A stretch of DNA of 64,000 bases, taken from contig CAWDSS010000010.1 in assembly GCA_963805065.1 (NCBI GenBank), positions 984,359-1,048,358 on the forward strand. Reading direction: 5' to 3'. The translations under genes and the position numbers were made by a program. The notes beneath the pieces are model-generated. The model searched no databases, had not been told where the DNA came from, and saw only the letters and a list, made by a program, of their open reading frames with translations. Shown piece by piece: positions 12,280 through 25,776 of the stretch (positions are counted from its first letter, which is position 1; each line of letters opens with the position of its first letter). The stretch comes from Candidatus Omnitrophota bacterium (GTDB lineage: Bacteria > Omnitrophota > Gorgyraeia > Gygaellales > Profunditerraquicolaceae).

Positions 12280-12356
12280 CGCGGGGTGGAGCAGTCCGGT
12301 AGCTCGTTAGGCTCATAACCTAAAGGTCATGCGTTCAAATCGCATCCCCGCAACCA
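12280..12356 (+). tRNA. tRNA-Met (CAT), initiator type, with encoded CCA
   Basis: Cloverleaf read by hand: cgcgggg acceptor with a C1:A72 mismatch as in E. coli tRNA-fMet, D arm gagc/gctc, anticodon loop ctCATaa, T arm atgcg-ttcaaat-cgcat, then ccccgca-a-cca. Only 2 of the 3 canonical anticodon-stem G:C pairs are present. A TATAAT box sits at 12269-12274. Confidence 0.9.
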
Positions 12357-12791
12357 TTATAATCTCTCAAACTCTAGAATGAGAGATAACGATAGCCTTG
12401 AATGCAGTAAACATTCAGGGCTATTTTTATGTAGCGATGTGTTAAACAGTTAGGGCATTATTTTTTCTGCATCATTACAGTTGTTGATTTCAAATTTTAA
12501 ACTCACCACAGGTTCGCTAAAAACAGCCAAATAAATCTCGCCCATGTATCTCTTTATCTCCAAATTGCCATTTAGTTAATGCTTTCTAGTTAATGGTTTT
12601 ATTGGCTATTTCTGCGTTATTAAGGGCAAAATTATAGGCATTAACTAGGGAATTGAGCTCATTTTATGTCCGTTTTGTCCGGTATTTAGGGGGGTGAAGA
12701 ACACATAACTATTTGGAAAATAATGGTTTATCTGTTGTCCGGTCTCCGTGAGGTGGACAAACAGCTTTAGGCGGGTTTAACTACTGTGTTT

Positions 12792-14429: not shown

Positions 14430-14900
14430 TTAAAGATTAAAAAACAAGTATCCGTTCCAGTGCGCTCCGGTTACCTCTTTGGCAATAGCTGTAAGGCTTT
14501 TGTAGACTTTGTTGTGGTATTCAAAACCTGATTCAAGGATCTTAATCTCAAGTTTGATTCCTTTGTATTCTTTGATAATCACTGTGCCGGGAATCGGCAG
14601 TCTTTTGTCCCGGCTAAGGTCGTGCTTCTTGGGTTGATTTTCAGTGGTGGCATCAGGCCGTAACGCTTTGTTATTGATGGGGTCATATTGCTGAATTAGT
14701 TGCTGGATTTTAGTCTGGGTTTCTGTGGAAATGCCGCCGTATTCCAGCTCTTGTATCCGGTAGGCAATCTTACGCCAGAGGAATACCTTGTTATTAGACG
14801 GTGCCTGTTGGCCAGGGAATAACTCCTCGTATTTTGCCTTAAGCTCAGCGAGAGATTTTTCCTTAAGTTCCATTATTTGGGAGAGGTTGGTTTCTGGCAT
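14430..14900 (-). CDS. DUF2924-family protein (common partner of large serine recombinases)
   Basis: LAELKAKYEELFPGQQAP...FLWRKIAYRIQELEYGGIS pattern. Start chosen at MPETN (aaagga RBS) rather than the ORF-track start at 14954. Confidence 0.65.
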   Translation of the reverse strand: MPETNLSQIMELKEKSLAELKAKYEELFPGQQAPSNNKVFLWRKIAYRIQELEYGGISTETQTKIQQLIQQYDPINNKALRPDATTENQPKKHDLSRDKRLPIPGTVIIKEYKGIKLEIKILESGFEYHNKVYKSLTAIAKEVTGAHWNGYLFFNL

Positions 14901-15013
14901 AAGTGGGTTCCTTTCGTTAGTACACATATGGCCATACGATCCGAGATAAGTCAAGTTATATAAGAGATATAGCCTTTAAATATTTAACTACCGTTATGTA
15001 AGCTTAAAGTAGC

Positions 15014-15061
15014 CTACCTATATACAGAGAGTCTGTCGCGCCGTATTTCTGGGCCGCCTCA
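15014..15061 (+). repeat. Left copy of an imperfect ~50-bp direct repeat bracketing the SIR2/RT cassette
   Basis: ctacctatatacagagagtc-tgtcgcgccgtatttctgggccgcctca aligns with 18421-18472. Differences are one 4-nt indel and a few substitutions. Confidence 0.75.
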
Positions 15062-15193
15062 TGGGGTTCACCTCTCGTAATATACGATAAGACAACTTAA
15101 AAAAAGGATTTACAGTGGGGAAAAGGAGGTATAGAATGATTCTATTACAAAGAGGCGCAAATGAGATTCGCATAATAAAATTTAAGACAACTT

Positions 15194-15222
15194 AAAAAAA
15201 GCAGGCGAAAGCCTGCTTTTTT
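15194..15222. terminator. Bidirectional rho-independent terminator (A7-gcaggc-gaaa-gcctgc-T6)
   Basis: GC stem with a GAAA loop, flanked by an A run and a T run. Confidence 0.7.
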
Positions 15223-15340
15223 AATCCTAAGCGGCCAAAAAAATTACCTGGAAGGGGCGAAGCGAGGTATTTTTATAAAGATAAAGATTATCTTCCTAAT
15301 TTTAATCACAAAATAGGAAAATCTCAAATTTTCAAATGAT

Positions 15341-16789
15341 ATGCAGAAGAGCATAAATCCAATAACATTCCAGCATATATCTGAATTGATCAGAAAGAAT
15401 GAATGTGTATTCTTTATTGGGGCTGGTATTTCACATACGGACGCAGATTTTCCTAGCGGTAATATGTTAAAAGAAATATTGGCCAAAGAATTAAATCTTA
15501 ATCCCTCTCATTTTACTTTACCAAGTTTAGCAAGTAAATATCAAGCTCAATTTGATAGAGTTAGGCTAATAACTTTATTTAGAGATAATCTTGATAAAAG
15601 AATCGATATCAATAAGAAAGGCGTATGCAAGATTTTGAAGAAAATTTGTAAACTGCCCATAACGACTATAATTACAACAAATTATGATAATTTAATAGAA
15701 AGTGTATTTGAAGCAAAACAAAATGTAATAAATGTAATTAAAACTGATAAACAAATATCTACCTGGAGAGAAGACTGTGTACAGCTCTTAAAAATTCATG
15801 GAGATTTCTCTGTAGACCCGGACAAAATTGTTATAACCAATGAAGATTACAGCGCTTATATAAACAACTACAAGTCTATGATTATAAAATTACAAGATTT
15901 ATTTAATACCAAGAATATAATTTTTCTAGGATATAGTTTAAATGACGTTAATTTTAAAAGTATCCACCATATTGTGGTAGAGAATTTAGGTGGACTAAAA
16001 AGAAAATGTTATGCTTTTTCTAGAGATAGGTTACCTGAAAAAGAAATAGAAGACTGGCATATGCAAAATTTAGATATCTTGAATTCTGAAGCCTATGATT
16101 TCGTCAAAGAGTTAGTGAAACAATATTACTATATTCCTAAAAAGACAGAATCAAAAATTGAGAAAGTTATAGTTGAACCACGACCAACTATAATGCGTCC
16201 TTGTTTTAAAAATAATGGAAAATTTTTATTCAGGAAGCGGTTCGCTTTTAATATCGGAATTCGGACCGGATTTTTAAAAGATTATTATTTTTACTATATA
16301 GTTTTAGATAGCATGATTTTCGAGCCAGCTTTTCTAACTAAATCTAAACTTAATAATTTAGTTTCTGGATTTAGTGATATTCTATCTAAACGACTAACTG
16401 ATTTAAGTAGAAAAGACTACTATTTAGAAAACTTGCATCCAATTTTTGAACAAAATCAAAAAGATAGAAAAAGAATTATAAAGCATGCAAATTTAATAAT
16501 TATTCTCGTTTATGACAATCGATATTCCGGTTATATTAATTCACTATATGGACCAGTTTCAAAATGGAAAAAATTTGTTTTAATTTTGCATCGGAATTTT
16601 AACAAAAGATTAGATACCGATTTAGTGCTAATTGGTTTAAAGTCACTTGGTAATCATGTAATTTCATTTTCATCATCTTCGCTTAAGGATGACCGTATAG
16701 TTGAAGAAATTCATAGATTAATTTTATTAGAACAAAATAATAGATTACAAAGTTTAATTTTAAGTGAAAGTTTAGAAAATGAAGAATAG
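15341..16789 (+). CDS. SIR2-like (SIR2_2 family) protein with an uncharacterised C-terminal domain; candidate NADase effector
   Basis: FFIGAGIS, ITTNYDNLIE, LLKIHGD, IIFLGYSLNDVNF motifs in the first ~230 aa. C-terminal ~250 aa of unknown fold. Confidence 0.8.
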   Translation: MQKSINPITFQHISELIRKNECVFFIGAGISHTDADFPSGNMLKEILAKELNLNPSHFTLPSLASKYQAQFDRVRLITLFRDNLDKRIDINKKGVCKILKKICKLPITTIITTNYDNLIESVFEAKQNVINVIKTDKQISTWREDCVQLLKIHGDFSVDPDKIVITNEDYSAYINNYKSMIIKLQDLFNTKNIIFLGYSLNDVNFKSIHHIVVENLGGLKRKCYAFSRDRLPEKEIEDWHMQNLDILNSEAYDFVKELVKQYYYIPKKTESKIEKVIVEPRPTIMRPCFKNNGKFLFRKRFAFNIGIRTGFLKDYYFYYIVLDSMIFEPAFLTKSKLNNLVSGFSDILSKRLTDLSRKDYYLENLHPIFEQNQKDRKRIIKHANLIIILVYDNRYSGYINSLYGPVSKWKKFVLILHRNFNKRLDTDLVLIGLKSLGNHVISFSSSSLKDDRIVEEIHRLILLEQNNRLQSLILSESLENEE

Positions 16790-17162
16790 ATTAACAAATA
16801 CCTCATACGAAGTGCTATATATTTTATATCTAGTAGTAAAAAGTAAAATCCTAAATAATAAAGAAGTTTGTGAATTTCTAGGAATTTTTCCTTCACAGTT
16901 TGATGAGATTATTAAATATATGACTACTAAATTATTATTGAAGGAAGAATCAGGTAATTTACTTATAACCGAAAGAGGCGAGAAATTGATCAAAGCATTC
17001 GACTTAGTAAATTTTGAAGTCGAGAACGACGCTCTAGAAAAATTAAATATGGATCGAATGCGAAAAAGAGGGAAAAAGGTCTTTAAATTAGAAGATTTTT
17101 ATTTACCGAAAGATTTTACTGATGACATAAGAAAGGAGGGGGGAGGATTAGAGAATTCTTAG
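16779..17162 (+). CDS. Small winged-helix (MarR/ArsR-like) protein, translationally coupled to the SIR2 gene
   Basis: Start overlaps the SIR2 stop by 11 nt. YEVLYILY...NNKEVCEFLGIFPSQFDEIIKYM...LITERGEKL resembles a wHTH. Confidence 0.5.
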   Translation: MKNRLTNTSYEVLYILYLVVKSKILNNKEVCEFLGIFPSQFDEIIKYMTTKLLLKEESGNLLITERGEKLIKAFDLVNFEVENDALEKLNMDRMRKRGKKVFKLEDFYLPKDFTDDIRKEGGGLENS

Positions 17163-17330
17163 ATCGCTATTTCTGGCGAGTCGCCAGGATGATGAGAAGA
17201 TAACCTTCTCTCCCGGCATGAGCTCAATAAATTGAGCTCATGCCATTGCACTTCGCGATGCTTCGTGCAATGTCGCGATTTTGGCTCTGCCAAAATTCGC
17301 GAGCGGTTTCAATTAGTTAGTAAGAATTCT
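17152..17330 (+). ncRNA. Candidate retron msr-msd non-coding RNA
   Basis: 10-nt terminal inverted repeat: AGAATTCTTA at 17152-17161 pairs with TAAGAATTCT at 17321-17330 (a1/a2-like). A G follows a1 at 17162. Five internal hairpins, including a perfect 14-bp stem at 17215-17244. Lies immediately upstream of the RT on the same strand. Confidence 0.6.
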
Positions 17331-17349
17331 TTTGTCTTCCCTTCTTATA

Positions 17350-18369
17350 ATGAACAAAGGATTATTTTTACAAAATTTTAAAAAAGAAGCAAAATTCCTT
17401 AAAATAGATAATGGATATAAAGAAATTTGTTTGACCTATGCTAATAGGTTGCTCTCTAAAGATCTTCCGGTAATATATGATATAAAGCATTTATCTTTAC
17501 TGCTGAATATTCGAATATCTCATTTAACAAAGATGATTTACGGTAATAGTAAATTTTACAAAACCTTTTATATTAAGAAGCGAGGAAATAAATATAGAAA
17601 GATTGAAGCTCCATTGGGAAGCCTTAAAACGGTTCAACGTTGGATTCTAAGGAATATACTTGAGAAGATAAAAACCTCAGATTATTGCAAAGGTTTTAGG
17701 CCCGGTTTATCAATTTTGGATAATGCGAGGCCACATCTAAATAAAGACTATGTTGTAAATGTTGATATTCAAGATTTTTTTCCATCTATAAAATATAATA
17801 AGGTTTTTGCAGTATTTAGGAATCTCGGTTACACAAAAAAAGTTTCATATGTTTTGTCTAAGTTATGTACTTTAGAAAATAGATTACCTCAGGGAGCGCC
17901 AACAAGTCCGTATATCTCTAATATTATATCTAAAAGAATAGATAGTAGAATTGCTGGTATTTGCAAAAATTTTGGATTTGTTTTTACAAGATATGCAGAT
18001 GACATTACTATATCAGGTACTAAAAAAGTAATTTTTTTGATTAGTTTTATTGAGAAAATATTAGGAGAAAGCTCATTTTTATTAAATAGATCAAAAACAA
18101 GAATTATGAAGAAAGGAAAAAGACAAGAAATAACAGGAATAGTCGTGAATGAAAAACTTAATTGGTTGAGGCCGAATATAAGAAAATTAAGGCAAGAAAT
18201 TTATTATTGTAAAAAATATGGGGTAGAAGAACATTTGAAGAGAAAAGGAATTATTAAAGCTAATTTCAGAGAATTTATGTATGGTAAAGCTTACTATCTA
18301 AAAATGATTGATAAGCCAAAAGGAGAGAATTTTTTACGAGAGTTAGACACTATTAATTGGGCGTATTAA
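17350..18369 (+). CDS. Retron-type reverse transcriptase
   Basis: NARPH (NAxxH), VNVDIQDFFPSI, RLPQGAPTSPYISN, YADDITIS, NRSKT, ITGIVVN (VTG motif). About 340 aa with no maturase or endonuclease domains. ATG at 17350 preferred over the TTG at 17332. Confidence 0.85.
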   Translation: MNKGLFLQNFKKEAKFLKIDNGYKEICLTYANRLLSKDLPVIYDIKHLSLLLNIRISHLTKMIYGNSKFYKTFYIKKRGNKYRKIEAPLGSLKTVQRWILRNILEKIKTSDYCKGFRPGLSILDNARPHLNKDYVVNVDIQDFFPSIKYNKVFAVFRNLGYTKKVSYVLSKLCTLENRLPQGAPTSPYISNIISKRIDSRIAGICKNFGFVFTRYADDITISGTKKVIFLISFIEKILGESSFLLNRSKTRIMKKGKRQEITGIVVNEKLNWLRPNIRKLRQEIYYCKKYGVEEHLKRKGIIKANFREFMYGKAYYLKMIDKPKGENFLRELDTINWAY

Positions 18370-18383
18370 CTAATTAGAACATA

Positions 18384-18420
18384 AAAAGGCTATTGATCGG
18401 ATACGGTCAATAGCCTTTTT
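18384..18420 (+). terminator. Rho-independent terminator after the RT gene
   Basis: aaaaaggctattgatcgg-atac-ggtcaatagcc followed by ttttt. Confidence 0.7.
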
Positions 18421-18472
18421 CTACCTGTATACAGAGAGTCCTTCTGTCACGCCGTATTTCTGGGCGCCTTCA
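18421..18472 (+). repeat. Right copy of the ~50-bp direct repeat bracketing the SIR2/RT cassette
   Basis: ctacctgtatacagagagtccttctgtcacgccgtatttctgggcgccttca aligns with 15014-15061. Confidence 0.75.
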
Positions 18473-18644
18473 GCATAGATACCTTTCGCAAAATTACTTT
18501 ATTCAAAATTCAAATTAATCAAAAGAAACCGCTTTCCCAATACCCCTGTTTTAGCCTTGAACACCCCTTACCTATATGCCATACTTTTATTAATGTAAGG
18601 CTGATGAACCAATAGCCACACTAAACTAACAAAATACTAATAAA

Positions 18645-25514: not shown

Positions 25515-25776
25515 TAAACTTTAAAATTCCCTGTTAGAGAGTTGCTCAAAACTCAGGGTTTTGTAATTACATGCTACCCCAGTAACATCACTCTTTTCAT
25601 ATAACGGGAGAGTTTAGGGACTGCCCGTGCAAAAATAGATAGCCATTTTTGCCAAATGTCACCCTCTTTAGGTGTAACACGAGTTATCTTTTTATGTTAC
25701 AAAATGTTATAAAAATCGACCTTTAAAAAAGGTGACAAAAGTGACATAAAATCTATCTCTTACGGCTCATAATTTC

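Follow-up and report, generated by a model that had tools for sequence, protein, structure and literature searches.

In a 64-kb stretch of the genome of a Candidatus Omnitrophota bacterium (hereafter, the window), two imperfect direct repeats of about 50 bp flank a 3.4-kb retron cassette, which raises the question of what kind of sequence stands at both edges of such a cassette and whether it takes part in moving the cargo. The original prediction offered two answers, namely a target- or attachment-site duplication made by insertion of the cassette, or a recurrent docking site at which cassettes are swapped. We find that the repeat belongs to a larger unit, which marks the 5′ boundary of accessory-gene modules in the genomic islands of Omnitrophota and is co-oriented with the downstream module. 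In the window, the right copy, together with a conserved hairpin, heads the module of a giant gene, and the foreign retron sits in the slot between the left and the right unit. We assign a probability of about 0.5 to the combined reading that these junction units form a family marking the edges of swappable accessory modules, that recombination between units exchanges the cargo, and that the unit has a role in binding a factor acting in trans.

Two direct repeats and the unit family to which they belong

The two repeat cores, CTACCTaTATACAGAGAGTC----TGTCgCGCCGTATTTCTGGGcCGCCT on the left and CTACCTgTATACAGAGAGTCCTTCTGTCaCGCCGTATTTCTGGG-CGCCT on the right, are identical at 45 of the 50 columns of a local alignment, the five differing columns comprising three substitutions and two indels (one of 4 nt and one of 1 nt). 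Their positions (Table 1) and common orientation were confirmed by alignment and by blastn: a blastn-short search with the copies against the window returned only their mutual match (E = 4e-6), and no third copy was found on either strand of the window by sensitive blastn. The 15-mer CGCCGTATTTCTGGG occurs exactly twice in the window, versus 0.07 occurrences expected. Fainter similarity extends for about 20 nt beyond the 3′ end of the core (...GGTTCACCTCTCG in the left copy and ...GATACCTTTCG in the right one), which brings the true length of each copy to about 75 nt. The right copy starts immediately 3′ of a hairpin flanked by an A-run and a T-run, which is itself preceded by the stop codon of the retron reverse transcriptase (RT) at 18369; the second repeat had indeed been described as following the RT terminator directly.

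Public metagenome contigs were scanned for the exact 19-base pattern TGTCNCGCCGTATTTCTGGG, which yielded 23 loci, 16 with the full 46- to 75-nt element and 7 with chance 19-base matches. At the full-element loci, the similarity also takes in 24 nt upstream and, in many cases, 30 nt downstream of the pattern, stretches that played no part in the selection. The consensus of the junction unit, ctaCCTGTATACAGAGAG-tctttctgtcgcgccgtatttc-TGGGCGTCCTTAccGGGgaTaCCTCTCAAATTT, spans about 75 to 80 nt, with the repeat as its core. The unit is present at about 20 other Omnitrophota loci (denoted here by L numbers), singly or as arrays of 2 to 3 diverged units, and is 85% to 100% identical between loci. A search with a hidden Markov model (HMM) of the unit recovered 2 copies in the window, pairs or tandem arrangements at L101, L107, L110, L111, and L112, and more copies beside DUF2924 genes; in 1.10 Mb of Omnitrophota ftsB neighborhoods, it recovered one copy (L063), located between tRNA-Met and a TetR-RND operon. 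In L112, L101, L102, and L097, one or two diverged units come next in a head-to-tail arrangement; in these, the outer parts are retained, and the middle parts are different but recurrent as well.

The placement of the unit follows a regular pattern. Its strand is that of the next gene in 19 of the 21 assessable cases, and it lies 3′ of a terminator, with a sigma-70-like promoter of the TTGACA-17-TATAAT type 14 to 200 nt downstream. The related TetR-RND operons of L063 and L112 (70% amino acid identity for TetR and 91% for RND) have both retained the unit on their upstream side. The operons downstream of units often start with a regulator gene, i.e., Fur, TetR (three times), ArsR, NikR, GAF-ANTAR, ImmA, or a ribbon-helix-helix (RHH) protein, as observed at L090, L063, L106, L112, L130, L137, L097, L111, and L107; this could be a clue to the function of the unit or merely typical of accessory modules. 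At L110 (positions 5235–6296), an rve-type transposase gene on the opposite strand directly follows a consensus unit, in the place normally taken by a co-oriented operon, and may represent an insertion sequence inserted at the junction. In viral contigs, the core was absent from the exact scan, and the DUF2924 relatives encoded there are 33% to 40% identical and have no unit. No such repeat in Omnitrophota was found in Rfam or in a literature search, which returned DUF2924 only in papers on Wolbachia prophages; the repeat family thus appears to be undescribed.

Units bracket unrelated cargos, and the slot of the window recurs in relatives

Ten copies have 1.3 kb or more of flank on their upstream side, and for 5 of these, a second co-oriented unit lies 1.3 to 3.5 kb upstream, compared to about 0.4% expected from the density of roughly one unit per Mb in unselected loci. 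The cargos bracketed in this way are the retron of the window, an ImmA/IrrE M78 peptidase with a DUF4411 protein (L111), a toxin–antitoxin (TA) set of RHH, Fic/DOC, and DUF6941 proteins (L107), a PHP-ATPase with a Ppl-like C-terminus (L101), and an AAA/STAND NTPase (L110). None of the five bracketed cassettes contains a recombinase gene. Other cargos end just before a unit, namely Shedu SduA in L102, an Avs-like STAND protein in L091, and a 363-aa protein in L098.

Locus L111 is collinear with the window on both sides of the slot, but its cargo is different: genes for a large serine recombinase (LSR) and a DUF2924 protein (76% identity) are followed by a unit, the ImmA and DUF4411 genes, the hairpin with a second unit, and a homolog of the giant gene (43%). 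Hence, the search for other cargo between the same repeats, which had been suggested as a check on the docking site, gave a positive answer. In L130 (DUF2924 protein 86% identical), the upstream region and the unit are almost identical to those of the left copy in the window; this is the single unit in 10 kb and is followed by a promoter and an ArsR/ars operon. L137, L138, and L140 (DUF2924 protein 88% identical) carry one unit and then a NikR-like gene, and L139, which encodes the same DUF2924 protein as L137, has a unit with the same 4-nt deletion as the left copy of the window. Given that the left unit is found in the retron-free L130 and L137–L140, the left copy is resident in the DUF2924–LSR module of one clade and older than the retron, and its 4-nt deletion, being common to L139, is unlikely to date from the retron insertion.

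On the left side of the slot, homology to L111, L130, L137, and L139 extends up to the 3′ end of the unit and no further, and the 170 nt that follow, which contain a promoter-like site, a terminator, and two copies of the word TAAGACAACT, show homology to L101, a locus with other cargo. On the right side, the homology between the window, L111, L098, and L102 starts about 15 nt before the hairpin and continues through the unit, and a homologous hairpin is also found before the unit behind the unrelated cargos of L098, L102, and L111. To judge from these sequence comparisons, the break-points form a mosaic of several sites and do not reflect a single fixed crossover.

The bracketed cassette is a complete, foreign retron

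The sequence between the two units comprises a complete retron, with genes for a SIR2 protein, a winged helix-turn-helix (wHTH) protein, and an RT, as well as a non-coding RNA (ncRNA), the predicted fold of which has an energy of −102.8 kcal/mol (z = −9.8). The GC content of the cassette is 0.29, versus 0.40 to 0.42 in the flanks, and among 5.8 billion proteins, no homolog of the RT exceeds 49% identity, the named ones among the closest being mostly from Firmicutes. The low GC content and the distance of the RT relatives indicate that the retron cargo is foreign. No transposase or integrase is encoded in the cassette, as judged from Pfam and PADLOC searches, and no close relative of the retron was found elsewhere (49% at best) that would reveal whether it travels with the unit.

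The cargo has an RT of the RT_III-A clade, an msr-msd region with a1/a2 arms, and a winged-helix protein, as expected of type III-A retrons. It resembles these retrons, which consist of a phosphoribosyltransferase (PRTase), a wHTH protein, and an RT, in its RT, in its separate winged-helix protein, and in the ncRNA immediately upstream of the RT gene, but differs from them in the effector, which is a SIR2-domain protein and not PRTase-like: the cargo gave no hit to the PRTase-like effector of type III-A and encodes a SIR2_2 protein instead. Type III retrons have been defined by the PRTase, and SIR2 is unmentioned in the 2020 classification (Mestre et al. 2020, PMC7736814).

Genomic setting of the slot

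The slot lies in a variable island (Table 1), to the left of which are the genes for enolase, ftsB/divIC, and tRNA-Met. In 80 related genomes, the gene order is ftsH, enolase, ftsB, (tRNA-Met), a variable stretch of 0.2 to 8 kb, GH94, and purB, and this conserved order identifies the region from about 12.4 to 27.4 kb of the window as the island. No direct repeat of the tRNA 3′ end delimiting the island was found, and its right end is therefore set by synteny only, near GH94/ADSL.

Table 1. Features of the island in the 64-kb window, with positions on the window
Feature	Position	Strand	Evidence or remark
tRNA-Met, left island landmark	12280–12356	+	ARAGORN; Rfam RF00005, 62 bits
LSR, 542 aa	12792–14420	−	Pfam Resolvase, Recombinase, Zn_ribbon_recom
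DUF2924 protein (P0001), 156 aa in the public gene call	14430–14900	−	Pfam PF11149, E = 1e-39; first gene of the DUF2924–LSR operon
Conserved leader/promoter region of the DUF2924–LSR module	14901–14976	−	Upstream comparison of L111, L113–L120, L123, L130, L133, L137–L140
Junction unit, left copy	15008–15085 (core 15014–15061)	+	nhmmer, 59 bits; resident allele with 4-nt deletion
Leader, probably a degenerate second unit	15086–15228	+	TAAGACAACTTAAAAAAAG twice, promoter-like site, micro-ORF, terminator; homologous to L101 2143–2290
Promoter-like TTTACA-17-TAGAAT	15109–15137	+	Between the two TAAGACAACTTAAAAAAAG copies
Micro-ORF, 19 codons	15138–15197	+	Not conserved
Leader terminator	about 15201–15222	+	After the second TAAGACAACTTAAAAAAAG copy
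SIR2-domain effector, 482 aa	15341–16789	+	Pfam SIR2_2, E = 1e-27; PADLOC ThsA SIR2 region, E = 9e-32
Winged-helix accessory protein, 127 aa	16779–17162	+	PADLOC WH_III-A, E = 3e-9; Pfam wHTH-PRTase_assc, E = 6e-4, below cut-off
Retron ncRNA (msr-msd)	17141–17341	+	a1/a2 arms 17141–17161 and 17321–17341; perfect 14-bp hairpin 17215–17244
Retron RT	17332–18369	+	PADLOC RT_III-A, E = 1e-133; NCBIfam retron_St85_RT, 242 bits (cut-off 235)
Conserved hairpin, bidirectional-terminator shape	18383–18420		17-nt arms, 94% complementary (inverted repeat); precedes the right unit
Junction unit, right copy	18416–18495 (core 18421–18472)	+	nhmmer, 66 bits; close to the family consensus; aligned with L098, L102, L111
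Giant secreted protein, 2289 aa	18645–25514	+	List of open reading frames (ORFs); methyltransferase domain; module downstream of the right unit
Degenerate junction pieces ACGGGAGAGTTTAG and CTGCCCGTGCAAAAAT	25604–25636	+	Word matches only (weak); just 3′ of the giant gene

DUF2924 homologs number 1088 at E ≤ 1e-20; the best 120 listed are 74% to 91% identical, and the named ones among them are mostly from Omnitrophota. The DUF2924–LSR module lies directly 3′ of tRNA-Met in L113, L118 (Velamenicoccus archaeovorus), L119, L126, L129, and L130, and the cargo of such tRNA-Met-adjoining modules varies by genome, including restriction-modification, a DISARM-like set (helicases and a methyltransferase), efflux pumps, and arsenic resistance. 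In L115, L120, and L123, the module is found in other or unknown contexts, again with differing cargo, which in L123 consists of type I restriction-modification and Kiwa systems. Conservation across all module-bearing loci stops near 14976.

Several features of the tRNA-Met region and of its recombinases deserve mention. The junction between tRNA-Met and the DUF2924–LSR module carries a conserved ATCTCTC...GAGAGAT hairpin (12364–12389 in the window). The tRNA-Met gene downstream of ftsB contains a group I intron in the anticodon loop in L063 (10383–10604; Rfam RF00028, 45 bits, E = 3e-10) and, as recognized by eye, in L118 and L130; the tRNA-Met of the window has no intron. The recombinase of L119 is a 92-aa remnant only, and an exact-protein look-up of the LSR of the window returned a single 2.6-kb contig only. 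Outside the island, at 1688–4224, genes for a small serine recombinase (188 aa) and an Xer-like tyrosine recombinase (354 aa) adjoin that for an ankyrin-repeat protein; in relatives, a tyrosine recombinase of the same size is encoded at the same position beside an MFS gene.

Just inside the left unit, the 19-nt repeat TAAGACAACTTAAAAAAAG occurs in two exact copies (15088–15106 and 15183–15201), which are part of a 34-nt repeat at 82% identity. This inner repeat had been described as framing a micro-ORF and a terminator; it does flank the micro-ORF, but the terminator lies 3′ of the second copy and not between the two. In the homologous stretch of L101, the micro-ORF has no ATG and is interrupted by a 1-nt indel. 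The word TAAGACAACT occurs twice around the promoter-like site both in the window (15088–15201) and in L101 (2150–2260), the cargos of which differ, and the paired words look like operator-like sites or a degenerate unit, not a gene. At the other end of the giant gene, the words ACGGGAGAGTTTAG and CTGCCCGTGCAAAAAT, which adjoin the hairpin or the unit in L098, L102, and L107, may be a third, decayed junction element marking the end of the giant-gene module.

How units may exchange cargo

From the identity of units between loci, we infer that recombination between them inserts, deletes, and swaps the intervening cargo. The simplest route would be homologous recombination dependent on RecA, which includes the Campbell-type entry of a circle with one unit or its loop-out; the hairpin and neighboring units would extend the shared stretch to 100 to 300 bp. 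The outcome would be unit-bracketed cassettes, with different cargo in the same slot. The primary function of the unit would probably be the binding of a trans-acting protein at module starts, a putative role suggested by its conservation and fixed orientation, which constitutes the weakest step of the scheme.

Several points weigh against exchange between units. A unit of 46 to 75 bp is short for efficient homologous recombination, and its fixed orientation and position ahead of promoters are equally expected of a purely regulatory element. The selection of loci by an exact 19-mer makes the conservation of the core partly a matter of ascertainment. Nine other DUF2924–LSR islands vary their cargo without any unit, with the conserved block ending at about 14976, which shows that units are unnecessary for cargo turnover beside the DUF2924–LSR module. 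Furthermore, the 3′ domain of the left copy is nearer to that of L139, with which the deletion is shared, than to that of the right copy; the left copy thus looks wholly resident and bears no trace of a crossover inside it. As for the docking site for swapped cassettes, the recurrent slot with differing cargo is borne out by L111 and four further loci, but no strict empty allele, in which a single unit would separate the DUF2924 gene from the giant gene, was found among the relatives compared; nor was a circular junction or an excision product seen, no reads having been searched. The original prediction had also counted against a docking site both a conservation of the element regardless of the cassette and a lack of alleles with alternative cargo: the element is indeed conserved regardless of the cassette, but alleles with alternative cargo exist.

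Alternative explanations

It is possible, if rather unlikely, that the unit is a purely cis-regulatory sequence, a protein-binding site or insulator upstream of the promoters of accessory operons, with no part in cassette movement; the two flanking copies would then be explained by the retron and giant-gene modules each owning one. The constant orientation of the unit relative to the downstream operon, its location 14 to 200 nt upstream of strong sigma-70-like promoters, the single copies before regulator-first operons (Fur, TetR three times, ArsR, NikR, and GAF-ANTAR), its retention upstream of the related TetR-RND operons of L063 and L112, and the repeated half-site-like words within it (CAGAGA ... 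TTTCTG ... TTTCTG) are all consistent with such a role. However, the distance to the promoter is variable, as is the number of units (1 to 3), and the downstream genes have no evident common function. Moreover, one in two assessable copies has a partner on the far side of a short foreign cassette, a pairing that regulation alone would not lead one to expect, and units are near-identical between loci with unrelated flanks.

We regard as improbable the possibility that the units, or the hairpin plus the unit, are attachment (att) sites of a site-specific recombinase acting in trans, be it the neighboring DUF2924–LSR pair or another enzyme, which would cut out and insert cassettes devoid of a recombinase, in tandem next to its own gene, as in the staphylococcal cassette chromosome (SCC). 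In a more general form, to which we give just as little credence, hairpin-plus-unit arrays would be the att sites of an undescribed Omnitrophota cassette system, in which a trans-acting recombinase, with DUF2924–LSR as the candidate, captures recombinase-less modules for defence, TA, and metal resistance and releases them as circles; if true, an uncultured phylum would possess an equivalent of integrons or SCC elements that is built on a serine recombinase. The cassettes have no recombinase of their own, the LSR adjoins the first unit in one clade (window, L111, L130, and L137–L140), and the core of about 46 bp and the 38-bp near-palindromic hairpin both fall within the size range of LSR att sites. 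The best NCBIfam matches of the LSR are CcrB, XisF, and CcrC, and the mobilization of ccr-less defence cassettes by Ccr enzymes provides a precedent (PMC11470126). Nevertheless, these matches are all far under the cut-offs, and an SCC-type Ccr recombinase was rejected on the scores for CcrB, CcrC, and CcrA (170, 140, and 126 bits versus cut-offs of 900, 900, and 700). Nine DUF2924–LSR islands have no unit, the unit pairs of L101, L107, and L110 have no LSR in the available flanks, and no unit is present at the tRNA-side end of the island. The dyad of the unit measures only 5 bp, and the 4-nt deletion in the dyad spacer (left copy and L139) should disable a crossover site. Finally, LSR att sites normally share only a 2-bp core, whereas the units share 46 bp.

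Specific versions of an attachment site fared no better. For attL and attR of the LSR, the site would be expected at both ends of the island with the recombinase gene and with a quasi-palindromic structure of about 40 to 50 bp. The copies do not look like such sites, considering that no unit lies between tRNA-Met and the LSR gene, nor any further one elsewhere in the window, that the dyad is so short, and that nine islands are unit-free. An integron-like attI site of the LSR–DUF2924 platform was rejected on account of the same islands and the end of their conserved block near 14976. Hybrid attL/attR sites with distinct left and right 3′ domains do not fit, as the 3′ domains are mutually homologous and the left copy is wholly resident.

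Less credible still is a small ncRNA gene or structured RNA at module boundaries, on either strand, for instance, a reverse-strand small RNA ending at the hairpin. The strong conservation of primary sequence over about 75 nt would suit an RNA, the L063 variant has a 43-nt insertion that forms extra perfect hairpins (fold z = −4.2), and the A-run and T-run flanking the hairpin could terminate reverse-strand transcripts. Canonical units, however, fold no better than shuffled sequences (z from −0.6 to +0.7), RNAalifold on 22 units gave no consensus structure on either strand (−3.3 and −0.7 kcal/mol), and there is no consistent promoter for either strand. These 22 aligned units are too alike for covariation, and the L063 insertion variant would still allow for an RNA role. 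No known structured RNA of Rfam 15 matches the units at the gathering score or even at E ≤ 1–5. The reverse-strand small RNA was rejected, with one weak reverse promoter-like site (L097) and none in three other scanned regions, and so was a coding unit, in view of the missing start codon and the 4-nt indel between the copies.

The duplication of a target or att site by insertion of the 3.4-kb cassette, which the original prediction had put forward, would account for the direct orientation of the copies and their tight bracketing of a low-GC cassette, but is very improbable, given that the same sequence recurs at about 20 unrelated loci, that the left copy stands alone in the retron-free L130 and L137–L140, that the copies differ at 5 of 50 columns and the left one shares its deletion with L139, that the hairpin and right unit are common to three other cargos, and that the cassette encodes no transposase or integrase. 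Target duplications made by transposition are 2 to 15 bp long, exact, and absent from uninserted sites, and the insert carries a transposase or terminal inverted repeats; the repeat is imperfect and 46 to 75 nt long, and, to our knowledge, 50 to 75 bp far exceeds any such duplication.

Other known repeat classes were likewise rejected. Integron attC sites are imperfect palindromes of 57 to 141 nt bounded by R″ (RYYYAAC) and R′ (GTTRRRY) cores and accompanied by an adjacent tyrosine recombinase, IntI. A regular-expression search of six hairpin-plus-unit regions found no R″/R′ pair on either strand, the neighboring enzyme is a serine recombinase, and the lone tyrosine recombinase, 11 kb away, scores 45 bits versus a TIGR02249 cut-off of 265. 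Repetitive extragenic palindromes or bacterial interspersed mosaic elements, as well as miniature inverted-repeat transposable elements, do not agree with 2 copies in 64 kb and 1 in 1.10 Mb, nor with a unit that is not palindromic and has no terminal inverted repeats. Inspection by eye for the sigma-54 and dif/Xer consensus sequences also gave no convincing match.

Relation to known cassette systems

By analogy, the SCC region of staphylococci appears to be the closest working counterpart. There, Ccr large serine recombinases mobilize tandem ccr-less defence cassettes bounded by att repeats (PMC11470126). As in SCC/SCCmec, an LSR gene stands at one end of the accessory region beside a conserved chromosomal landmark, and defence-enriched, recombinase-less cassettes lie between co-oriented imperfect direct repeats, with cargo varying between relatives. 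The landmark, however, is tRNA-Met instead of rlmH, and the recombinase, distant from CcrB (170 versus 900 bits), is paired with DUF2924. Furthermore, the 46- to 75-nt repeat has no dyad symmetry, is also found far from any LSR, and is absent from most islands with the same LSR family.

The arrangement shares with integrons and their attC sites (including the Vibrio repeats, VCRs) the co-orientation of promoter-distal cassettes, each ending in a conserved repeat of about 60 to 140 nt with a hairpin, the divergent recombinase gene beside the first site, and the many TA and defence cargos. It differs from them in that the repeat has no R″/R′ cores and the recombinase is a serine enzyme and not the tyrosine recombinase IntI; in addition, the cassettes have their own promoters and terminators, several are multi-gene, and no multi-cassette arrays were seen. 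A comparable logic may be seen in the intergenic mosaic elements and minimal mobile elements of Neisseria and in P2/P4-like defence hotspots, where short intergenic repeats or conserved flanks delimit slots in which alternative cassettes are exchanged by homologous recombination, the repeats being mosaics of sub-units. The Omnitrophota units belong to an unrelated sequence family in another phylum, and the flank is a single oriented unit of 75 nt, as opposed to conserved genes or dRS3-bounded repeats.

Implications

It is known that defence systems tend to be clustered in hotspots. Sequences that delimit and move single cassettes are known for few systems, for example, integrons, SCC elements, and hotspots of phages or satellites, nearly all from cultured Proteobacteria and Firmicutes. 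In Omnitrophota, a phylum whose members are ultra-small and mostly uncultured, a short, oriented, highly conserved repeat is found at the edges of cassettes. Should the unit drive exchange, its 75-nt HMM would provide a handle for new defence cargo in these genomes and the unit itself a testable recombination substrate. If, instead, the unit is regulatory, it would point to a trans-acting factor controlling many horizontally acquired modules. Under either reading, the retron, with its SIR2 protein, wHTH protein, and type III-A RT, is a foreign cassette in a pre-existing slot.

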